Shown here: positions 2,670 through 20,962 of the stretch, in pieces
How the letters are laid out: each line of letters opens with the position of its first letter
How positions within the stretch are numbered: position 1 is the stretch's first letter
From: an uncultured Oscillospiraceae bacterium
GTDB lineage: Bacteria > Bacillota > Clostridia > Oscillospirales > Ruminococcaceae
Assembly: GCA_934539585.1 (NCBI GenBank)
Contig: CAKTCT010000032.1
Span: forward strand, 1-24,000
Direction: 5' to 3'
Length of the DNA: 24,000 nt
The notes under the pieces: generated by a model
Seen by the model: the letters and a program-made list of their open reading frames with translations, nothing else
Told to the model about the DNA's origin: nothing
Databases searched by the model: none
Position numbers and translations under genes: made by a program

Positions 2670-4780
2670 ATGGAGCATCCCTTCTTATTCGGGGCCCAGT
2701 ACTACCGCGCCCCCACCCCCGCCCGGGAAAACTGGGAAAGCGACCTGAAAAACATGAAGGCCCTGGGCTTCAACGCCGTGAAATTCTGGGTCCAGTGGCG
2801 GTGGGCCCACTGGAGCGAGGACGAATTCTATTTCGACGACATCGACGAGCTCATGGACATCGCTCACAAAAACGGCCTCCGGGTGACGCTGAACGTCATC
2901 TTCGACGTCGCGCCCCTGTGGGTGACGGAAAGGTACCCCGACGCCCTCATCGTCCTGGCCAACGGGAAGAAGGTCCTGCCGGCCACGGTGGGCCACTGGC
3001 AGATTGGCGGCTTCCCCGGAGTCTGTTACAGCCACCGGGAAGCCTTTGAGGCCCGGCAGCGGTTCCTGCGGGTCACGGTGGAGCGCTACCGGAACCACCC
3101 GGCCCTGGACATGTGGGACGTCTGGAACGAGCCGGAGCAGTGCGGCACCAACCGGGCCCCCGTCACCCAGGAGCTCTCCTGCTTCTGCGAAAACTGCCGG
3201 GCGGGATTCCTCCGGTGGCTCAAGGAAAAGTACGGCTCCATCGACCGGCTGAACCAGGTCTGGGGCCGGTGCTACCGGGATTTCGATGAAGCGGAGCTCC
3301 CCCGGGAGCACGGGACCTTCGGGGACTTCCTGGATTTCCGGGAGTTTCACCTGGACAAGATGACCCAGGAGGCCCGGGCCCGTCTCCGGCTGGTCCGGAG
3401 CCTGGACCCCGCCCATCCGGCCTACCTCCATGTGGTGCCCAACACCTCCTCCATCTTCAACTCCCTGACTGGGGTGGACGATTTCCGGCTGGCGGAGGAC
3501 TGCGACGTTTTCGCCTCCACCAACTTTGCAAAGCCCATCTGGAGCATCCTCACCCTCTCCGCAGGCCGGGGAAAGCTCTACTACAACGCCGAGTGCCACA
3601 TCGGCAGCGGCTCCATCCGGATGCACCAGAAGCAGATCGCCTTTTCCGACCTGGCCAAGGACCTGGTCCCCCAGATCGGCATGGGCATCCGGGGTTCCTT
3701 TTCTGGCAGTACCGCCCCGAGGTCCTGGGACCCGAGGCTCCGGCCTGGGGCGCGACCCTTCCCGACGGGCGGCCGGGCAGCGTCGGGACCGCCGCCGGGG
3801 AGTTCATCGCAAAGCTCCGGCCCTATCTCCCGGAGCTCCTGGCGGCAAAGCCCCCGGAGCCGGAGATCGCCATCTGGAAGGGGCGGAAAAACGAGATTCT
3901 CTCCTTCTGCATCAACGAGGAGACCACCACCTTCGCCCAGAGCATCGAAGCCTACGTGGACGCCCTCTACTCCCACAACTACAACTGTCGCATCGTGGAC
4001 GACCAGGGGGTCCTCTCCGGGCTGGAAGGGGTCCGGCTGCTGATCCTGCCCCAGTGCTACGAGCTGGACGCCAGGCTGGCGGCAGCCATCGACCGGTTCG
4101 CGGCGGAGGGCGGGACCGCCCTCTGCGAGGCCCATCTGGGGGGCTACAACGCCGACACCGGGCGGCACTCCTGTACCATGCCGGGGCTGGGCCTGGACAA
4201 AGCCTGGGGCATCCGGGAGGAGTACACCACCAGCTCCTATCATTTAAAGCTCCGGAGCCGGGAGATCGTCAACACCGACGGCATGGCCGACGACGTGAAG
4301 AAGGCCCTGGACGTCTACGGCGTCAGCGGCGGGAAATACTTCCCCATCCGGCTGGAAAACGGCTCCGTGGCGGGCTGCCAGCGGTTCGCCGCCTTAAGCG
4401 GCAGCGGCTGCCAGGTCCTGGGGACCTTTGACGGGGTCGGCTGCATCCTGAAAAAGAAGTACCGGAAGGGGACTATCTTCTACTGCGGCTCCGACCTGGG
4501 CCAGGGGGCGGCGGCGGACCCGGAGGGCTTCGCGGCCTTCCTCCTGGACGTGGTCCGGGAGGCGGGAGCCGCCGACAACGGCCTCTGCCCTCCGGCGGGG
4601 GTCCATGTGGACCGGATTTCGGAGAGGCTCCTGGCGGTGAACAACCTCACCGAAACCGACGTCCTTCTCCCCGCAGAGGGGCGGTACGCCAGCGTTTTCC
4701 ACCCTGAAAGGACCGGCGGGGCCCTCTGCGTCCCGACCGGAGAGGCGGATCTGTTTGTGAGGGAGGGGTTCGATGCGTGA
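2670..4780 (+). pseudogene. GH42-family beta-galactosidase interrupted by a 1-nt frameshift (or homopolymer assembly error) in the G-run at 3691-3694
   Basis: Frame A (2670 onward) reads GH42-like sequence (GAQYYRAPTP…NAVKFWVQWRW…WDVWNEPE…) up to …PQIGMGIRG, then becomes Pro/Arg/Ser junk. Frame B (ORF 3593-4780) carries the natural continuation from about nt 3695: GFLFWQYRPEVLGPEAPAWG… through the trimerisation-like domain and C-terminus. Joining the frames at ATCCGGGG/TTC gives ~703 aa, a typical GH42 length. Confidence 0.8.
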
Positions 4781-9474: not shown

Positions 9475-10389
9475 ATGAAAAACGACAGAATCCCGCCCCA
9501 GAGCCCCGGGGACCAGGCCCTTTCCCGGGGGATCCGGGGATACGCCCTGGCCATCCGGGCCCTCCTTCTGGGAGCCGCCGCCTGCACGGTGCTGTTTCTG
9601 CTGAACCTCATCCTCTGGAACCGGACCGGGACCGCCTTCCTCTGGCTCTGCGGAGTGGTCCCCCTGATTTTCCTGACGGGGTGGGCCGCTTCCCGCCAGA
9701 AGCAGCTGATCTGGAACCACCTGGGCGGCGAAATCCACCAGCAGATCGAAGAACGCTTCGGCCCGGCCCTCCAGGAGCCGGGAATGACCATCGGCGAGGC
9801 CCTGATCCGGCAAGGCGCCATGATCCCCTGTCCCTGGGAGGAAAGCCGCATCACCGAAAACCGCGTGGGCCTTTATCACGGCCTCCGGTTCTTTGCCGCC
9901 AACGTGGAGCTGGTCCACGAGTACGACGCCATGATGAACCGGGAGGGCGTCACCGACGTCCTCCGGGAGACGGTCTTTTCCGGGTCGTGCCTGGCCGTGG
10001 AGGCCCGGCGGCCCTTCCCCGCCGCCTTCCGGGTCCTTCCCGGGGAGGACGGCGCGTTTACCGGGGACCCGGCCTTTGACCGCCGGTTTTCCGTCTCCGC
10101 CGACGACCCCCGGGCCGCCCGGGAGCTGCTGACCCCGGAGCGGCGGGCCCTCCTGCTGGAAATCGCCGACCTGCACCCCGTCTCCTTCGCCTTTCTGGAG
10201 GACCGGGTGCTCCTGGCCCTGGGCGGCCCGCCCCGGTTCCTGGCCATCGGCTCCGACATCGACGTGAAGAACATCGACACCCTGCGGCAGAGCTTCCGCC
10301 GCTCCCTGGACCACACCGCCGCCATCCTGGACATTCTGGCCCGGGACGACCGGCTCCATCCCACTGGCGAGAAAGGAAATGCAGTATGA
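9475..10389 (+). CDS. DUF3137-like membrane protein (two N-terminal TM helices)
   Basis: 304 aa. An N-terminal TM hairpin is followed by a domain resembling DUF3137 (…FFAANVELVHEY…, …DPAFDRRFSVSADDPRAARELLTPE…). The stop overlaps the lemA start (ATGA). DUF3137 and LemA are known genomic neighbours. Confidence 0.65.
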   Translation: MKNDRIPPQSPGDQALSRGIRGYALAIRALLLGAAACTVLFLLNLILWNRTGTAFLWLCGVVPLIFLTGWAASRQKQLIWNHLGGEIHQQIEERFGPALQEPGMTIGEALIRQGAMIPCPWEESRITENRVGLYHGLRFFAANVELVHEYDAMMNREGVTDVLRETVFSGSCLAVEARRPFPAAFRVLPGEDGAFTGDPAFDRRFSVSADDPRAARELLTPERRALLLEIADLHPVSFAFLEDRVLLALGGPPRFLAIGSDIDVKNIDTLRQSFRRSLDHTAAILDILARDDRLHPTGEKGNAV

Positions 10390-10919
10390 AAATCGCAATC
10401 ATTCTCCTGATTCTGGCAGTTCTTCTTGCCATTTGGTGCATCGCCACCGTCAACGGCTTCCGGAAAAAGGAAATCCGGGCCCAGGAAGGGCTTTCCGGCA
10501 TCGAGGTGGCCCTGGCCAAGCGCTACGACATGCTGACCAAGCTCCTGGACGCCGCCAAGGGCTACCTGACCCATGAGACCCAGCTGTTCACCGGGACCAT
10601 CCAGCTCCGCCAGGGCATGAACATCAGCCAGCTGAACCAGGCCCAGCAGCAGATGGAGGACCTTTCCGGCAAGCTCTTTGCCGTGGCCGAGAATTACCCC
10701 CAGCTCCGCTCCGACCAGGTCGTCGTGGAGCTCCAGCGGGGCATCCGGGACGCGGAGGAGCACCTCCAGGCCGCCCGGCGGCTCTACAACTCCAACGCCG
10801 CCAGCTATAACGCCGCCATTGCCATGTTCCCCGCAAGCCTCCTGGCCAAGGGCCGCCAGCCCCTGGAATTTTTCCAGGCCGACGCCAAAAAGCGTGAAGA
10901 CGTAACCATTTCGCTATGA
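10386..10919 (+). CDS. lemA: LemA family protein
   Basis: 177 aa. N-terminal TM anchor plus characteristic LemA sequence (…ALAKRYDMLTKLLDAAKGY…ENYPQLRSDQVVVELQ…AARRLYNSNAASYNAAIAMFPASLLA…). Confidence 0.9.
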   Translation: MKIAIILLILAVLLAIWCIATVNGFRKKEIRAQEGLSGIEVALAKRYDMLTKLLDAAKGYLTHETQLFTGTIQLRQGMNISQLNQAQQQMEDLSGKLFAVAENYPQLRSDQVVVELQRGIRDAEEHLQAARRLYNSNAASYNAAIAMFPASLLAKGRQPLEFFQADAKKREDVTISL

Positions 10920-10934
10920 CTCCGGGAGGATTAT

Positions 10935-11864
10935 ATGGAAAAGAAGAATCGAACGCAGGAAGCCGCGCCCACCCTTTCCGACGAGGAGCTTACCAGCCAG
11001 CTGGCCAAGTATAAGGCCCTCCTGGTCCTCGGGAAGCTCCTGGTGGGCGCGGGGGTGGTTGTCACCGGGATCAGCCTGTTCACGGGGATGATTCCTGGCG
11101 TTGTCGTCGGTATCCTCCTCGCCATCATCGGCAGCCTCGTCTCCCAGAAAGCCTCCGGCGCCATCAAGACCCGGACCAGCTCCAACCTGGTCCGGGCGGC
11201 CCTGGAGTCTGTTTTCGACAACGTAGACTACCAGCCCTTCCGGCACCTGTCCAGCTCCCAGATTTACAGCGCCGGGATGGCCTTCCCCTTCAGCTTTGAC
11301 GAAATTGAGGGCAGCGACTGCGTCAAGGCCGTCTACAAGGGCCTGAACATCGAGATGAGCGACATCTCCCTGGTCAGCGTCACCACCACGGAGGACGAAA
11401 ACGGCATGCAGAGCGAAAGCCGCTCCACGGTGTTCCAGGGCCTGTGGATGATCTGCGACTTCGGCAAGACCCTTTCCGCCGAGGTGAAACTGAGCAAGCG
11501 GAGCAAACTGGACCGGCTTTTCCGCAGCAAGGGCATCCAGACCGAAAGCGAGGAGTTCAACAAGCGCTTCTGCATCCAGTCGGAGAGCCCGGTGGAAGCC
11601 TTCTACATCCTGACGCCCCACATGATGGAGTACATCCTGGGGATGCAGTCCAAGGGCGGCGGCGACGTCTACATGAGCTTCCTCCGGGAGGGCAAGGTCC
11701 ACATCGCCATCAACTCCGGCCGGGACTCCTTTGAAGCGGAGAAGGGCACGGTAAACGCCGCCGCTCTCCGGGAGAAGTTCGTGGGCGAGATTCGGTACAT
11801 CACCGACCTCATCGACGAGCTGCGGCTGGTAGATACCTTATATCAGAAGGAGGGAACGGTATGA
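10935..11864 (+). CDS. DUF3137 domain membrane protein (second copy)
   Basis: 309 aa. TM hairpin, then …CVKAVYKGLNIEMSDISLV…FQGLWMICDFGK…EEFNKRFCIQSESPVEAFYILTPHMMEYIL…, which is typical DUF3137 architecture. RBS GGGAGG upstream. Confidence 0.75.
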   Translation: MEKKNRTQEAAPTLSDEELTSQLAKYKALLVLGKLLVGAGVVVTGISLFTGMIPGVVVGILLAIIGSLVSQKASGAIKTRTSSNLVRAALESVFDNVDYQPFRHLSSSQIYSAGMAFPFSFDEIEGSDCVKAVYKGLNIEMSDISLVSVTTTEDENGMQSESRSTVFQGLWMICDFGKTLSAEVKLSKRSKLDRLFRSKGIQTESEEFNKRFCIQSESPVEAFYILTPHMMEYILGMQSKGGGDVYMSFLREGKVHIAINSGRDSFEAEKGTVNAAALREKFVGEIRYITDLIDELRLVDTLYQKEGTV

Positions 11865-12085
11865 CCGTAGCCACCGCCATCATTCTCCTGATTTTCGCAG
11901 CCGCGGCCCTGGTCTGGGCGGTGATCGCCAAGCCCAGGAAGGCGGTGCGGATCGTCTGCATCGTCATCAGCGCCGTAATCGCCCTGGGATGCGCCGCCTA
12001 CATCGCCCTGGCGTTCCTGCTGGTCAACGGCATCCAGAACCAGCCCCCCATAGCGACAAGAATCGTCGAGACGATCCAACTCTAA
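11861..12085 (+). CDS. Small hypothetical membrane protein (74 aa, 2 predicted TM helices)
   Basis: The start overlaps the upstream stop (ATGA), suggesting translational coupling. It has two hydrophobic stretches separated by KPRKAVR. Confidence 0.5.
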   Translation: MTVATAIILLIFAAAALVWAVIAKPRKAVRIVCIVISAVIALGCAAYIALAFLLVNGIQNQPPIATRIVETIQL

Positions 12086-12104
12086 GCGCCGAAGGCGCTT
12101 AACC

Positions 12105-12720
12105 GGCACCACGTCAGGATGCCAGCCATCCACGTCAAGCCGCCGCGTATCTCCAAATCCTCATACAGGAGTCAAAGCGGTAAAAAGTGCTGCACGGTTG
12201 CCTACTGTCTGAGCACCGATAGCGGCGGCGGGAAGTGTCGCGTGCGGATATGTTTATCCAGCGCCTGCCGCCATTGGGGTCTTTAGGGGCGCAGCCCCTA
12301 AACGGTTTTTCTCCCCAATCTTTTTTCCGTAAAAAAGATTGGGTGCCCTGGTAGGACATAACAAATCTGTACAAACGTAAGTAGCCGCATAGGCTAGTAG
12401 GGCTTGCCGATTACGAATTAAAATCGGCAGCGCTACCGGCCTATGCGGCTACGTTCGCTTTGGATTATTGATAGGTCGGTCATAGCACCCCTTCTTTTCC
12501 CGCGTGGGAAAAGAAGGGGGAGAAAAGGACGCTCGGGTGGCTCCCGCCCCCCGAGGCCCCCTAAAGTCGCGCCTGAGGCTTCGGAGGACCCCGATATTAC
12601 CTCGCGGTGGACACGGCCGCCGCAATTGGTGGGGAGACAGTAGGCATCCAGCTGCCACTTTCGGACGTTTTGTTCCTCACGATGGGCTTTGGGGGCAGGC
12701 GGCGGCCTGACGTGGGTACC
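12105..12720. repeat. Copy A of a ~600-bp quasi-palindromic intergenic element (U-type arm ~12131-12412, apex ~12413-12421, inverted V-type arm ~12422-12716)
   Basis: Homologous to 16173-16806 (inverted) and 20337-20940 (direct). Terminal inverted motif GGCACCACGTCAGG…CCTGACGTGGGTACC. A 14-bp perfect central stem pairs 12381-12394 with 12439-12452. Local hairpins at 12282-12302, 12314-12343 and 12488-12519. Confidence 0.85.
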
Positions 12721-12721
12721 A

Positions 12722-13708
12722 TTATTTCTCACCCAAAATTTCTCGTAATACTTCTCTCGACACCAAAATGTCCTCTTTCGGAATTTTCTCCCAGGAAAAT
12801 TCCGGGATCAGCTCGGCGGCTTTTACCGGCTCCGGGCGGTCCAGCAACCCCGCCAGCCAGGCTAACAGCCCCAGAACCGCCTCCGGCCCGGTTACCCGCT
12901 GCCGCAAGGCCCCTAAATCCAGGTCGCCGTCCCGCTTGGACAGCCTCCGCCCGTCCTCGGCGGCCAGCAGGGGAATGTGCCCGTACCGCGGCGGCGAAAA
13001 TCCCCACAAGGATTGCAGCCAGATCTGCCGGGGACTGGACGAAAGCAGATCGCTGCCCCGGACCACCTCGGTGACGCCCATCAGCGCGTCGTCCAGGGCC
13101 GCCGCCAGCTGATACGCAAAGACCCCGTCCGCCCGCCGGAGGATAAAATCCCCGCAATCCCGGCTGAGCAGCTCCCGCTGGGGCCCGTAGTGGAGGTCGT
13201 CAAAGGCCACCCACTCCTCCGGGACCCGGATGCGGGCCGCGGGCTTCCGGGTCCTGGCCCGGAGCGCCGCTTCCTCCGGCGTCAGGTTCCGGCACCGGCC
13301 GGTGTACAGAAACCGCCCGTCGGAGCGGTGGGGCGCTTCCGCAGAATGGAGCTCCGTCCGGCTGCAAAAACAGGGGTATAAAAGCCCCATGTCCTCCAGC
13401 TTCCGGAAATATTTCCGGTAAATCTCCGTGCGCTGGCTCTGGAAATAGGGGCCGTTGGGCCCGCCTGCGGAGCACCCCTCGTCCCAGTCAAGACCCAGCC
13501 ACCGGAGGTCCTCCTCCAGAAGCCCGGCGTAGGCCCGGGGCGCACGCTCCGGGTCCAGGTCCTCGATGCGGAGGATCACCCGCCCGCCCTGGGACCGCGC
13601 GGAAAGCCAACTCAAAAGGGAACAGAACACGTTCCCCAGGTGCATCCGCCCGCTGGGCGTGGGCGCGAACCGCCCGGTAACGGCAGCCATGGCCATCATC
13701 CTTTCCAA
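12722..13708 (-). CDS. gluQ: tRNA glutamyl-Q(34) synthetase (GluQRS; truncated GluRS paralog)
   Basis: GRFAPTPSGRMHLGN (HIGH-like), ILRIEDLDPER, FAYQLAAALDDALMGVTEVVRGSDLL and LSKRDG (KMSKS-like). ~320 aa with no anticodon-binding domain. The exact start is uncertain (TTG at 13708 or a downstream ATG). Confidence 0.85.
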   Translation of the reverse strand: MERMMAMAAVTGRFAPTPSGRMHLGNVFCSLLSWLSARSQGGRVILRIEDLDPERAPRAYAGLLEEDLRWLGLDWDEGCSAGGPNGPYFQSQRTEIYRKYFRKLEDMGLLYPCFCSRTELHSAEAPHRSDGRFLYTGRCRNLTPEEAALRARTRKPAARIRVPEEWVAFDDLHYGPQRELLSRDCGDFILRRADGVFAYQLAAALDDALMGVTEVVRGSDLLSSSPRQIWLQSLWGFSPPRYGHIPLLAAEDGRRLSKRDGDLDLGALRQRVTGPEAVLGLLAWLAGLLDRPEPVKAAELIPEFSWEKIPKEDILVSREVLREILGEK

Positions 13709-13711
13709 ACT

Positions 13712-15595
13712 TTATACCGGGAGCTCATAAAGCCGGAACCACTTGAGCCCCGGCAGCCCCGATTCCAGCGTCCCCGCCCGGCGGAAGCCATAGGTCTCGT
13801 ACAGCGCGATCGCCGGGGAATTTTCCGTAAAAACGTCCAGCCGGAGGGCCTTGCAGCCGGTCTCCCGGCCCAATTTCCGGGCATGATCCAGGAGAAACCG
13901 CCCGCCTCCCCGCCGGGAGCACCCCGGGTCCACGCTGAGGGTGTGGACCGCCAGGACCTGCTCCTCCTCCGCCGGGACCTGCCAGGAGCCGCCGGCCCAG
14001 AACCCGGCCTGGTCGTGGTTCAGGATCACCGCCCCCGCCGGAAGGCCGCCGTCCTCCAGCAGCCAGAGGGTCCCGGCGGAAACGGTGGCCTCGGCCTCCT
14101 CACGCTCGGGATAAACCCCGCTGCGCCAGCCGCTGGGATTGACCAAGGCCCGCTCCGCCCGGCGGCAGATGCGCTCCCACAGGTCCGCCACCGCCGGAAT
14201 GTCCTCCCGGCGGGCCTGCCGGACCCGGAACTCCGGCTTCCGCGGGTACTCCGGGGAAAGCATGGGCCGGTGCTCCGGCAGCCAGCGGAGCAGCGCCGCC
14301 TTTTCGTTGGGGCACTCCCCATCCAGCACCCCTTCCAGTAGCTCCTCCAGCGACGCGCCGATCTCCCGGCCTGGGGCGACCCCCGCCGCCAGCAGGTCCT
14401 TGCCGCTGACGGCCAGCTGCTCCAGGGAAAGGCAGTCCCCGGCCTCCAGAATGTCCCGGGCCAGGGCCTCCAGCTTGTCCAAAAGGGAGCCCCGGTCGAA
14501 AGCCGGATTCTTAGCCCGGTCGTCGGCCCGCTTGACCTGCAGAAGGGCGAAAAAGTCCCCCGGCCCCAGCTCCCGGAGCCACCGGCACAGGACCGGCCGC
14601 TCCGGGGGAACCGCTGCGTCGTGCCACCGGACCAGGGTCCGGACCCGGCGGGCAGTCTCCCCGTCGGCGTCCAGGCGGCGGAGGACCTCCCTTGCGATGC
14701 CCTCGGAGGCGGCGGGGTGGCCCTTGAAATGCCCCCGGCCGCTGCGGTCCGTGAAGAAGCAGGCGGGCTTGCCGATGTCGTGGAGCAGCATGGTCAGCCG
14801 CAGCACCGGCTCCGGCGGGACCCCCTCCACCGCCCGGACCGTGTGCTCGTACACGTCCCAGAGGTGGTAGGGCGTGCGCTGGTCAAAGCCCCGCAAGGGC
14901 TCCAGCTCCGGGATGATCACCGCGAAGACCTCCGGAAATTCCCGGAGCACCCGCCCGGCCCCCGGCCCGCAGAGGAGCTTCAAAAGCTCCGGAAAAACCC
15001 GCTGGGGAGCCACCAGCCGGAGCCGTTCCCGATTCCGGCGAAGGCTCTGGGCGGTGGCCTGGTCCAGGGAAAAGTCCAGCGCCGCCGCAAACCGCAGCCC
15101 CCGGAGAATCCGCAGCGCGTCCTCCCCGAACCGCCGGTCCGGGTCCCCCACGCAGCGGATGATCCCCGCCGCCAGGTCCTCCCGGCCCCCGAAGCAGTCG
15201 GTGATTCCCTCCTCCGGGGACCAGGCCATGGCGTTGACGGTGAAATCCCGCCGGGCCAGGTCCTCCCGGAGGGAACGGGTGAAGGCCACGGAGTCCGGCC
15301 TGCGGCTGTCGGAGTAGGGCCCGTCCACCCGGTAGGTGGTGATCTCCAGGGGGCTGCCATCCAGGAGGACCGTCACCGTGCCGTGCTTTTCCCCGGTGGG
15401 GATCACCGGGACCCCGGCAAAGACCTCCCGGACCTCCTGGGGAAAGGCGGAGGTGGTGATGTCCCAGTCGTGGGGATCCCGCCCCAGCAGGCAGTCCCGG
15501 ACGCAGCCCCCAACGGCCTGGGCGGCGTACCCGGCGTCCCGGAGCCGGGCCAGGGCCTCCCGGACCGGTCCGGGGCAGGCTTCCGGCCGGATCAC
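13712..15595 (-). CDS. cca: CCA-adding enzyme (tRNA nucleotidyltransferase, class II, with HD domain) fused to a C-terminal GNAT acetyltransferase domain
   Basis: The GTG start overlaps the ybaK stop (GTGA). Head domain: AVGGCVRDCLLGR…DWDITT…RRDFTVNAMA. HD motif: LLHDIGKP. The C-terminal ~165 aa (about 13712-14215) carry a GNAT motif: HTLSVDPGCSRRGGGRFLLDHARKLGRETGCKALRLDVF…ALYETYGF. The ORF-track extension to 16099 is rejected. Confidence 0.85.
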   Translation of the reverse strand: MIRPEACPGPVREALARLRDAGYAAQAVGGCVRDCLLGRDPHDWDITTSAFPQEVREVFAGVPVIPTGEKHGTVTVLLDGSPLEITTYRVDGPYSDSRRPDSVAFTRSLREDLARRDFTVNAMAWSPEEGITDCFGGREDLAAGIIRCVGDPDRRFGEDALRILRGLRFAAALDFSLDQATAQSLRRNRERLRLVAPQRVFPELLKLLCGPGAGRVLREFPEVFAVIIPELEPLRGFDQRTPYHLWDVYEHTVRAVEGVPPEPVLRLTMLLHDIGKPACFFTDRSGRGHFKGHPAASEGIAREVLRRLDADGETARRVRTLVRWHDAAVPPERPVLCRWLRELGPGDFFALLQVKRADDRAKNPAFDRGSLLDKLEALARDILEAGDCLSLEQLAVSGKDLLAAGVAPGREIGASLEELLEGVLDGECPNEKAALLRWLPEHRPMLSPEYPRKPEFRVRQARREDIPAVADLWERICRRAERALVNPSGWRSGVYPEREEAEATVSAGTLWLLEDGGLPAGAVILNHDQAGFWAGGSWQVPAEEEQVLAVHTLSVDPGCSRRGGGRFLLDHARKLGRETGCKALRLDVFTENSPAIALYETYGFRRAGTLESGLPGLKWFRLYELPV

Positions 15596-16068
15596 TGGGC
15601 GATGGCGGCGGTCTGGCCGCGGGTGAGCTTTAACAGGTCGTCGGGGGAAAGCTCCACCTGGGTGCCGATCTTCCCGCCGCTGACCATAATGGTGGCGCAG
15701 GACCGGGCGCTTTCGTCCAGGGTTGTGCGGAAGGCTTTTTTCATCCCGATGGGCGAGCACCCGCCCCGGATGTAGCCGGTGACGGCGTTGATCTCGCTGA
15801 CATGAATCATCTCGATGGACTTTTCCCCCACAGCCTTGGCGGCGGCCTTGAGGTTCAGCTCCTTGTCCGAGGGGAGGACGAAGACGAAGTAGTTCCGGCT
15901 GGCCCCCCGGGTCACCAGGGTCTTGAAGACCCGTTCCACCGGCTGGCCCAGCTTTCCGGCCACGGAGACGGCATCGATCAGGCCGTCGTCGTGGGAGTAG
16001 TAGTGGGGGGTATAGGGGATTTTTCCTTTTTCCAGGATTCGCATGACGTTGGTTTTTTCTGCTGACAT
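15592..16068 (-). CDS. ybaK: YbaK/EbsC-type aminoacyl-tRNA deacylase (Cys-tRNA(Pro) deacylase family)
   Basis: 158 aa. MSAEKTNVMRILEKGKIPYTPHYY…FKTLV…VFVLPSDKELNLKAAAKAVG…VTGYIRGGCSPIGMKK…. A strong RBS (AAGGAG) lies upstream of the ATG at 16068. The ORF-track N-terminal extension into the repeat is rejected. Confidence 0.85.
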   Translation of the reverse strand: MSAEKTNVMRILEKGKIPYTPHYYSHDDGLIDAVSVAGKLGQPVERVFKTLVTRGASRNYFVFVLPSDKELNLKAAAKAVGEKSIEMIHVSEINAVTGYIRGGCSPIGMKKAFRTTLDESARSCATIMVSGGKIGTQVELSPDDLLKLTRGQTAAIAQ

Positions 16069-16129: not shown

Positions 16130-16172
16130 GACAGTAGCGATTTCCCGGCGGAAACCGGAAAATGCCTGGGTG

Positions 16173-16806
16173 GGTGCGCTAATCGCACCAGGTCAGGCCG
16201 ACGCCTGCCCCCAAAGCCCATCGTGAGGAACGAAACGTCCGAAAGTGGTAGCTGGATGCCTACTGTCCACGCACCAATTGCGGCGGCCGTGTCCACCGCG
16301 AGGTAATATCGGGGTCCTCCGAAGCCCCAGACGCGACTTTAGGGGGTCTCGGGGGGCGGGAGCCCACCGAGCGCCCTTTTCTCCCCATTCTTTTCCCGCG
16401 CGGGAAAAGAATGGGTGCGATGAACCACCTATCGATAATCCAAAGCGAACGTAGCCGCATAGGCCGGTAGCACTGTCGAATCCGAATCGAATTTGGCAGT
16501 TCCTACCAGCCTATGCGGCTACTTACGTTTGTACAGATTTGTTTTGTCCTACATAGCGCACTTACTCTTTTCCCCGGAGGAAAAGAGTAAGCAGAAAAGT
16601 CCGTTTAGGGGCTGCGCCCCTAAAAACCCCAATGGCGGCAGGCGCTGGATATGGATGACCGCACGCGACACTTCCCGCCGCCGCTATCGGTGCTCGGACA
16701 GTAGGCAACCGTGCAGCACTTTTGGTCGCTTCGATTCCTGTATGAGGATTCGGAGATACGCGTCGGCTTGACGTGGGTATCGGTGCGGCGGCCTGACGTG
16801 GGTGCC
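16173..16806. repeat. Copy B (inverted relative to A and C) of the ~600-bp quasi-palindromic element (V-type arm ~16189-16478, U-type arm ~16495-16776, plus a duplicated terminal motif to 16806)
   Basis: The same invariant blocks as copy A in reverse order: GCCTACTGTC 16258-16267, GTAGCCGCATAGGC 16451-16464, GCCTATGCGGCTAC 16509-16522, GACAGTAGGC 16697-16706. Hairpins at 16384-16415, 16561-16591 and 16604-16624. Confidence 0.85.
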
Positions 16807-16842: not shown

Positions 16843-16871
16843 TGGACAAGCACCGGAAAATTCAGTATAAT
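16843..16871 (+). promoter_or_regulatory. Sigma-70-type promoter of the AI-2E/cls/membrane-protein operon
   Basis: TGGACA (16843-16848), 17 nt, TATAAT (16866-16871). It lies 32 nt upstream of the ATG, with RBS AAAGAGGAA. Confidence 0.6.
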
Positions 16872-19630: not shown

Positions 19631-20326
19631 ATGCAGCGACAGTACAACGGCCATCTCCGCACCAACCGCAAGGATGCCAGCGGCTCCTTTGCCCACGACC
19701 TGAACTTCTACCAGCTTTTCTGGATTTTCTTCATCGGCTGCTTCCTGGGCGTGGTCATCGAGACCCTCTGGTGCCTCCTGACCCGCCACCACTACGAGAG
19801 CCGCACGGGGCTCATCTACGGCCCCTTCAACCTGGTCTACGGCTTCGGGGCGCTGTTCATGACCCTGGGCCTCAACTGGCTGAGCAAGAAGCGGGACGCC
19901 TGGATTTTCCTGGGCGGCGTGGTCATCGGCAGCGTATTCGAGTACCTTTGCAGCTGGATTCAGGAGACCCTGTTCGGCACGGTGTCCTGGCAGTACGACA
20001 AGATGCCCTTTAACCTCAACGGCCGGATCAACCTGCTGTACTCCCTGTTCTGGGGAGCCCTGGCCCTGGTGTGGGTCAAGGGGATTTACCCCCTGATGTG
20101 CCGGGCCATCAGCCGGATCCCCAACCAGATCGGGAAGCCCCTGACCTGGGTGCTGCTGGTGTTTATGGTCCTGAACTCCGCCATTTCGGGCCTGGCGGTC
20201 GCCCGGATGTCCGCCCGCCGGGAAGGCGCGGCCCCCACCACCGCCATCGAGTCCTTCTTAGACCGTCACTACCCCGACGAGCGACTGGAAAAGATTTACC
20301 CCAACATGGTATACGTGGAGAACTAG
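19631..20326 (+). CDS. Polytopic membrane protein, putative ABC-transporter type IV / CmpB (DUF1113)-like
   Basis: 231 aa starting at MQRQYNG…, with RBS ACGGAGGAA. …FWIFFIGCFLGVVIETLWC…TGLIYGPFNLVYGFGALFM… resembles the PF06541 family. This assignment is from memory and is tentative. Confidence 0.65.
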   Translation: MQRQYNGHLRTNRKDASGSFAHDLNFYQLFWIFFIGCFLGVVIETLWCLLTRHHYESRTGLIYGPFNLVYGFGALFMTLGLNWLSKKRDAWIFLGGVVIGSVFEYLCSWIQETLFGTVSWQYDKMPFNLNGRINLLYSLFWGALALVWVKGIYPLMCRAISRIPNQIGKPLTWVLLVFMVLNSAISGLAVARMSARREGAAPTTAIESFLDRHYPDERLEKIYPNMVYVEN

Positions 20327-20336
20327 ACCTTGATAC

Positions 20337-20940
20337 GTGCGCCAATCGCACCACGTCAAGCCGACGCGTATTTCCGAAGTCCCATACAGGAATCGAAGCG
20401 GTAAAAAGTGTTGCACGGTTGCCTACTGTCTGAGCACCGATAGCGGCGGCGGGAAGTGTCGTGTGCGGATATGTCTATCCAGCGCCTACCGCCATTGGGG
20501 TTTTTAGGGGCGGGAGCCCCTAAACGGTTTTTCTCCCCAATCTTTTTTCCGTAAAAAAGATTGGGTGCCCTGGTAGGACATAACAAATCTGTACAAACGT
20601 AAGTAGCCGCATAGGCTAGTAGGAACTGCCAAATTCGATTCGATTTCGGCAGCACTACCGGCCTATGCGGCTACGTATGTTTTGGATTATCGATAGGTGG
20701 TTTCTTGCACCCCTTCTTTTCCCGCGTGGGAAAAGAAGGGGGAGAAAAGGACGCTCGGTGGGCTCCCGCCCCCCGAGACCCCCTAAAGTCGCGCCATAGG
20801 CTTCGGAAAGCCCCAATACTGCCTCGCGGTGGAAACGGCCGCCGCAATTGGTGCGTGGACAGTAGGCATCCAGCTGCCACCTTCGGACGTTTCGTTCCTC
20901 ACGATGGGCTTCTGGGGCAGGCGGCGGCCTGACGTTGTAC
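20337..20940. repeat. Copy C (same orientation as A) of the ~600-bp quasi-palindromic element (U-type arm ~20352-20632, V-type arm ~20644-20936)
   Basis: By eye ~15 differences from copy A over the ~275-nt U arm; the V arm is more diverged. Invariant blocks at 20421-20430, 20603-20616, 20661-20674 and 20858-20867. Hairpins at 20503-20524, 20536-20565 and 20710-20741. Confidence 0.85.
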
Positions 20941-20962
20941 GCAATGGTACGCTGTACCTCAT

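Follow-up and report, generated by a model that had tools for sequence, protein, structure and literature searches.

Enterobacterial BIMEs and the NIMEs of Neisseria are mosaics of short motifs in alternating orientation, with variable motif number at their edges, and act as substrates for recombination or gene conversion. Multi-site transposon ends (the IR/DR ends of Tc1-like elements, those of Tn7, Mu and IS21, and those of eukaryotic Foldback elements) have long arms with discrete conserved blocks, directly repeated terminal motifs and a variable number of sub-repeats. Prokaryotic MITEs are typically shorter than 500 bp, with terminal inverted repeats (TIRs) of ~4-30 bp; they have flanking direct repeats (target-site duplications), at least when young, and a related autonomous IS with the same ends that can mobilize them in trans, and their mobility is evident from sites that are filled or empty among strains (PMC10969869). 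REPINs are defined as two short inverted REP palindromes that form a near-perfect hairpin of ~90-110 bp, and are described as ~89-bp, near-perfect hairpins built from 16-bp REPs (PMC3337134).

In the window (the whole stretch of 24,000 nt that we analyzed, from an uncultured Oscillospiraceae bacterium), we found three copies, A, B and C, of a sequence of ~590 nt, which are ~90% identical and have sharp, common core boundaries. Each copy consists of two inverted, collinear arms, U and V, of ~290 nt, which are 56-65% identical to each other; the core measures 586-595 nt and the extended form ~680 nt. The sequence-only reading that drew attention to copy A had described two diverged, inverted modules, each arm type being kept across copies, that become collinear with a shared order of blocks once the right arm is reverse-complemented. 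This description holds on both counts, and all of the features listed in that reading are present where it placed them. The copies are arranged as follows.

12130-12716, + strand: core of copy A, with the U arm at 12130-12417 and the V arm at 12418-12716, between two convergent genes, a 74-aa gene (ends 12085) and a GluQRS-like gene (ends 12722)
16184-16776, - strand: core of copy B, inverted, with the V arm at low and the U arm at high coordinates
~16155 to 16800: extended element of copy B, between divergent genes with promoter-like sites at 16129-16101 (-) and 16843-16871 (+), both outside the element
20351-20941, + strand: core of copy C, between convergent CmpB-like and adenine deaminase genes

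Within the window there are six occurrences of the 14-mer GTAGCCGCATAGGC (0.11 expected) and seven of the terminal motif (0.17 expected), which has the consensus CACGTCA[A/G]GCCGnCGC in both arms. The positions at which U and V match are modestly clustered in one U-V comparison (by permutation, P = 0.03 for the longest run, of 14, and P = 0.017 for the number of bases that fall in runs of at least 8). The "six copies" of these blocks represent one ancient U/V split plus ~10% later divergence, and are not six independent samples. The element has a GC content of 56-58%, compared to 63% in its surroundings; its terminal 31-nt arms are 74-81% complementary, and a terminal motif of 16-17 nt is found at both ends. 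The motifs and hairpins of the arms, given for copy A, are these.

12130-12146, + strand: U-arm terminal motif CCACGTCAAGCCGCCGC, paired with the inverted motif at 12699-12715 and restricted to the edges of elements
12699-12715, - strand: V-arm terminal motif CCACGTCAGGCCGCCGC
12199-12209 and 12636-12646: TGCCTACTGTC
12214-12229 and 12616-12631: CACC-RAT-WGCGGCGGC
12199-12229, + strand: U-arm conserved block, TGCCTACTGTC-N4-CACCGATAGCGGCGGC
12616-12646, - strand: its V-arm counterpart, TGCCTACTGTC-N4-CACCAATTGCGGCGGC
12282-12302, + strand: U-arm hairpin H2, TTTAGGGGC-GCA-GCCCCTAAA, followed by the conserved linker CGGTTTTTCTCC at 12303-12314
12532-12555, - strand: V-arm hairpin H2, CTCGGGGGGC-GGGA-GCCACCCGAG, with CGTCCTTTTCTCC next on the inward side
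12314-12343 and 12488-12519: TTTTCTCCCC plus a T/A-rich hairpin
12314-12343, + strand: U-arm hairpin H3, CCCAATCTTTTTT-CCGT-AAAAAAGATTGGG (helix 11), with 4 of 13 pairs compensated between two alleles
12488-12519, - strand: V-arm hairpin H3, CCCCTTCTTTTCCC-ACGC-GGGAAAAGAAGGGG (helix 19), with a C-G to A-U compensated change in seven copies
12381-12452, either strand: central hairpin, with a 14-bp perfect stem of GTAGCCGCATAGGC (12381-12394) and GCCTATGCGGCTAC (12439-12452)
12405-12412 and 12422-12429: apex stem of the central hairpin, TGCCGATT and AATCGGCA

Conservation along the arms is not uniform. Of the columns that are identical in U and V, 19% vary within an arm type, compared to 37% of the other columns (Fisher P = 3.7e-6); thus, with shared columns varying about half as often, the shared blocks are under sequence-level constraint. 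Within the U-arm block at 12199-12229, TGCCTACTGT showed no variation among 32 distinct arms. Hairpins H2 and H3 were found in all 32 distinct arms, with several fully compensated versions of their stems, among them one compensated variant of the U-arm H2 (GGGGT/ACCCC), and are kept through compensatory change. In one V arm, that of copy D on a strain contig (L022, 68-415), 66 nt that form two small hairpins (TTTTTAATCAAGCATTTTTCATCACTTGTGATGGAAAATGCTAGCAAAGTCGCTTTGCGACTTTGCG) take the place of part of H2; they may represent a further, very small insertion element inside the repeat. The sequence-only reading had suggested that the blocks are recognized in a sequence-specific manner, by a protein or through tertiary contacts; their constraint fits recognition of the DNA by a protein, which would bind there. 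We can reject the explanation that the similarity of the arms reflects a recent inverted duplication followed by neutral decay, since the U/V divergence is common to all copies, and thus predates their dispersal, and since the decay is not uniform.

We considered two ways, both raised in the sequence-only reading, in which the element might act as RNA. If the whole element were transcribed as one long structured RNA, it would form an imperfect rod with side hairpins; the predicted fold is indeed very stable (-313 kcal/mol, z = -12.6), and the shared blocks pair across the arms (helices 4, 5 and 15). However, the opposite strand folds in silico equally well (z = -12.1), as it would for any inverted repeat, and ~19% of arm positions are transversion mismatches. 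Moreover, a transition difference leaves a G·U pair on one strand and an A·C mismatch on the other, and the wobble-compatible differences displayed no strand bias (32:24, 25:23, 36:29 and 37:24). Among 187 consensus pairs, 7 had changed on both sides, compared to 6.4 in shuffles (247 of 500 shuffles reached the observed number; 18 distinct copies), and 5 of these 7 lie in the local hairpin H3. The power of this comparison is limited by a mean column identity of 93%: shared blocks that never vary give no information about pairing, and in the central hairpin (helix 15), where 17 of 19 pairs are invariant, covariation is uninformative. RNAalifold on mixed U and V arms was likewise uninformative, because of indels in the hairpins. 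With neither a promoter nor an Rfam match in addition, we regard the single long RNA as improbable in the extreme, and the functional foldback rod of the sequence-only reading is not borne out.

The second possibility is that each arm encodes a separate RNA of ~290 nt, the two being convergent or divergent. Both arms keep the block order and the unit of H2, linker and H3 with compensatory changes, and a small number of G·U pairs in H3 variants favor the inward-reading strand. Against this, folds of single arms vary from copy to copy except in H2 and H3; a scan for sigma-70-like promoters found none inside any copy, at the center or the ends; and the Rfam search of the window yielded nothing at gathering score (only sub-threshold miRNA-hairpin noise at E up to 10). 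We found no tRNA or tmRNA. A candidate closing stem within the arm, GCCGnCGC/GCGGCGGC, was discarded, as most U arms have uncompensated mismatches in it. Separate arm RNAs are thus highly improbable as well. Taken together, the covariation that the sequence-only reading had proposed as a check lacks support for the long-range models and is seen for the two local hairpins, H2 and H3; the long-range RNA models are not supported. Coding potential fares no better: both strands have open frames, but frameshifts between copies disrupt the longest one, on which ground the coding hypothesis was rejected, and concatenated conceptual translations had no match among 5.8 billion proteins, in which no ORF had been called on the element.

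The limits of 12131 and 12716 first proposed for the element are correct for the core and do not hold as its true ends, since further modules lie outside them at several sites. These comprise a small hairpin (GTGCG-CCAAY-CGCAC), extra terminal motifs and an outer CCGGAAAAYGCCTGG module (~55 nt); the outer modules and extra terminal motifs occur solely at element edges, where they form tandem or nested ends, and the extra terminal motifs are in direct orientation, with a variable spacer of 6-12 nt to the U end. In the window they are found at the following positions.

12110-12118, + strand: incomplete version of an extra V-type terminal motif, CACGTCAGG, immediately beyond the U end of copy A
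16785-16800, - strand: full extra V-type terminal motif, adjoining copy B
20337-20351: outer hairpin GTGCGCCAATCGCAC, abutting the U end of copy C
16155-16188, - strand: outer end module CCGGAAAATGCCTGG-GTGG-GTGCGCTAATCGCAC, adjoining the V end of copy B and found only adjacent to the element

The extra V-type motif outside the U end has the same arrangement at sites B, D, F and H. On one strain contig (L003), the outer end module is present on both sides in inverted orientation (at 14294 and 14960); its two outer ends align over ~55 nt, and the U side has a partial V-type end before the U arm. Copy D has a solo V end ~140 nt beyond the element. Nested and truncated ends of this sort are typical of mobile DNA that inserts beside itself or recombines. 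In seven site versions we found no target-site duplication abutting both ends (the best words were no better than those in shuffles or off the ends), a result to be read with the age of the copies and the uncertainty of the true ends. Upstream of copy A, another strain (L031, ~20318-20343, corresponding to window 12092-12111) differs in length by a 20-nt deletion, which removes the beginning of the extra terminal motif together with the small hairpin GCGCCGAAGGCGC that follows the 74-aa gene; this difference was rejected as a clue to the element ends, as it is a deletion in the flank.

All copies are intergenic and lie among ordinary chromosomal genes, which around the various copies are DUF3137/LemA genes, an operon of tRNA_edit, CCA-GNAT and GluQRS genes, and genes for an AI-2E transporter, cardiolipin synthase, CmpB and adenine deaminase. 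The element recurs at identical sites on contigs of this species from many metagenomes. Long contigs or MAGs with this locus include GCA_964261755.1, GCA_964328705.1 and the contig set from ERZ28760847, and the organism is also present in samples such as the ERZ272xxxxx gut assemblies. Beyond the window, copy D lies ~9 kb past copy C, and copy E is located on an unrelated contig, downstream of a gene for an ammonium transporter; in all, at least five sites have full or partial sequence and three more are implied by chimeric flanks, with flanks that differ between sites. Many metagenome contigs terminate inside the element, as a repeat that interrupts assembly would cause them to do.

Beyond this species the element was not seen. 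An exact-block scan gave no match in 185,579 species-representative genomes or in viral contigs, and matched one contig in JGI metagenomes; blastn against plasmids and phages found nothing, nor did nhmmer profiles of the element and of its arms against the loci of 62 relatives or against seven sister-lineage loci (~77 kb; GluQRS 81-85% identical). The host shows 65-66% identity to Bittarella in GluQRS and 57% identity to Merdimmobilis in adenine deaminase, and the nearest MAGs reach 73-88%. The element is a dispersed non-coding DNA repeat of one uncultured Oscillospiraceae species. We saw no empty site or presence-absence polymorphism, the element being present on all strain contigs that read across sites A-D. 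In the search for an empty site, the sister lineages had no comparable synteny, the adenine-deaminase relatives had partial synteny only, GluQRS relatives had a convergent small gene 79 nt away that is not homologous to the 74-aa gene of the window, and the closest sister contig is short, with ends that are not element-like. Neither a transposase nor an autonomous parent was found in ~200 kb of the species' contigs or beside copy E.

Several features of the neighborhood are worth recording in their own right. The GluQRS-like gene belongs to a tRNA-centered operon (12722-16068, - strand) that also encodes a YbaK-like tRNA_edit protein and a CCA-adding enzyme–GNAT fusion (627 aa); these three genes also make up a set on a 3.4-kb contig (L114) of the closest sister MAG. 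On the other side of copy A, 9475-12085 encodes DUF3137, LemA, DUF3137 and the 74-aa membrane protein, the last two overlapping by ATGA (11861-11864). A GH35/GH42 beta-galactosidase-like gene at 2670-4780 is split into ORFs of 457 and 261 aa in the window, and is also split in five strain contigs (L001, L008, L009, L026 and L029) and intact, at 703 aa, in four (L002, L003, L027 and L028); the split looks like a polymorphic frameshift or a pseudogene. Between the U side of copy D and an adh_short gene (L098, 3543-3583) we noted a near-perfect 20-bp palindrome (AAAAACCCGCAATGCTGCGC/GCGCGGCATTGCGGGTTTTT), with a related half-sequence across D (2758-2780); it looks like an ordinary bidirectional terminator.

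Comparison of strains revealed how the copies have evolved. Identity is 97-100% within a site and 86-90% between sites, and the copies cluster by site, so that they are old and vertically inherited, with no recent burst. Synteny changes exactly at an element in three places: to the right of A (L002), to the left of B (L003) and to the left of C (L099 and L101), the last of these in two independent assemblies. Chimeric copies, in which the crossover falls inside the element, are found at these breaks. Furthermore, the U-arm H3 exists as two very different alleles, both of which are found at the same orthologous site in different strains, indicating sequence exchange between copies. Part of the chimerism and allele swapping could be an assembly artefact of short-read metagenomes, yet both states recur in independent assemblies. 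We conclude that the element is old and fixed and recombines between copies, giving rise to rearrangements and to breaks in assemblies. A phase-switch inversion was rejected, as the orientation of the element is identical in all strains.

Based on these observations, we think that the element, which behaves as an old miniature transposon that no longer moves, probably derives from a non-autonomous, MITE-like foldback-type transposable element, of which the arms are complex transposon ends. Each ~290-nt arm would be a diverged copy of one such end, with a terminal motif, often following a small hairpin and outer module, and internal constrained blocks (TGCCTACTGTC..CACCRATWGCGGCGGC and GTAGCCGCATAGGC). 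The blocks would be bound by a protein provided in trans, for which a transposase is the most likely candidate, and their arrangement resembles that in multi-site ends of the IR/DR, Tn7 or Mu type. The copies would have spread by transposition, and some may affect neighboring genes at present, for instance through weak termination at H2 in some U arms. The non-uniform conservation could also stem from gene conversion or from a function at the level of the host, instead of marking transposase sites.

A host-level function is the premise of an alternative that we consider rather unlikely, in which the element, whatever its origin, is a domesticated or host-useful intergenic module (BIME-, REP- or SPRITE-like) that is kept because it is useful to the neighbors on both sides. 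Possible roles are a bidirectional transcription stop, a stabilizer of mRNA 3' ends (H2 with its T-tract, and H3), or a platform at the blocks for a nucleoid or other host protein. Of the four sites with complete sequence, three are flanked by convergent genes. Owing to the symmetry, transcription from either side meets an identical order of modules, and the constrained blocks and compensated hairpins in fixed, old copies also speak for such a module. Sister lineages have a canonical bidirectional terminator downstream of GluQRS, and the terminator-like pattern (GC-rich stem plus U-tract) was scored at H2 followed by CGGTTTTTCT in the U arms of A and C. However, this call was made only for the GGGGT/ACCCC allele of H2 and in neither copy B nor any V arm, as the T-tract there is short and 3-5 nt from the stem; copy B is flanked by divergent promoters, so that it is not obvious what a terminator would do there, and 590 nt is far beyond what a terminator needs. 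In the sister lineage, the terminator (AAAAACCGGAGGGCAGGAGC...GCTCCCGTCCTCCGGCTTTT; L107, 11030-11108, and also L108 and L110) is accompanied by a non-homologous convergent 71-aa gene downstream of GluQRS, and copy A occupies the place of this post-GluQRS terminator in the source species.

Another alternative is a REPIN-type element, mobilized as a hairpin in single-stranded DNA and recognized by a single-copy tyrosine (HUH) transposase such as RAYT, which we judge very unlikely. GTAG is a hallmark of REP sequences, and the element has the GTAG-containing motif GTAGCCGCATAGGCyrGTAG at its center; in addition, H2, H3 and the central hairpin are conserved. An origin of this type would account both for vertical persistence and for the missing target-site duplications, and the foldback form, vertical inheritance and persistence of the element match those of REPINs (PMC3337134; bioRxiv 10.1101/2022.05.22.493013). 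In contrast, the element measures 587 nt, its arms are just 56-65% identical, and its conserved blocks are not themselves palindromic. REP/RAYT systems are, moreover, mainly proteobacterial, which also counts against this origin.

We also considered that the element might be a maintained, symmetric functional module rather than merely a decaying transposon. It would then be either the paired ends of an undescribed type of bacterial transposon that has long, IR/DR-like ends with multiple sites and targets itself in nested insertions, or a platform kept by the host, in which the blocks bind a specific protein and the series of H2, linker and H3 acts on transcripts entering from either side. Both of these versions agree with the constraint on the blocks and the compensation in the hairpins of old, fixed copies; nevertheless, we hold such a module to be distinctly unlikely.

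If the MITE-like foldback origin that we favor is correct, then one uncultured gut Oscillospiraceae lineage carries a high-density repeat, with four copies in ~44 kb, that fragments metagenome assemblies, marks strain-level rearrangement breakpoints and swaps sequence between copies, and that is thus relevant to binning, strain typing and synteny. Its candidate protein-binding motifs are TGCCTACTGTC..CACCAATTGCGGCGGC, GTAGCCGCATAGGC and GTGCGCCAATCGCAC-CACGTCAGGCCGCCGC. The element opens neither a new class of RNA nor a new biological mechanism.

The element is like BIMEs and NIMEs in the mosaic traits described at the outset, but differs from them in that a large, fixed core of 587 nt lies beside the edge motifs and in that the motifs never occur alone. 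It likewise has the traits given above for multi-site transposon ends; however, its blocks are mostly distinct sequences, of which only GCnCCAATnGC and GCCGCCGC recur, and it has no known cognate transposase; what it shares with such ends is a resemblance, which need not mean membership. Pneumococcal BOX, RUP and SPRITE repeats (cited in PMC10969869) are similar to the element as modular intergenic repeats of Firmicutes that cluster, insert into one another and in some cases have terminator-like hairpins, whereas the element has no sequence similarity to them, is much larger, and has a terminator-like feature that is not kept across arms.

REPINs and the REP-RAYT system (PMC3337134, PMC3116915) resemble the element in being foldback doublets of inverted units that are vertically inherited, long-lived and lineage-confined, without target-site duplications and with complex arrangements at the edges. 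In contrast, the element is six times longer, its units are not short palindromes and its host is a Firmicute; measured against the REPIN definition (PMC3337134), it departs in size and in the perfection of the hairpin, which is not near-perfect. Finally, foldback MITEs such as Correia, ERIC and QMITE (PMC10969869) are like the element in being non-coding, intergenic and dispersed, with TIRs and a stable predicted stem-loop (in the transcript or in single-stranded DNA), with a GC content below that of host DNA and with a tendency to promote rearrangement. The element has the non-coding nature, terminal inverted repeats and multiple dispersed intergenic copies of a MITE, and departs from the MITE definition (PMC10969869) in size, target-site duplication and demonstrated mobility: it is 587-680 nt long, with arms of ~290 nt that are 56-65% alike in place of short, near-perfect TIRs; it has no target-site duplication, known parent IS or observed presence-absence polymorphism; and its ends are nested, with tandem terminal motifs. 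If our reading is right, the architecture of this repeat, in which the arms are long and diverged with a few blocks under constraint, each arm has two compensated hairpins and the ends are nested, would widen the known range of bacterial miniature elements.
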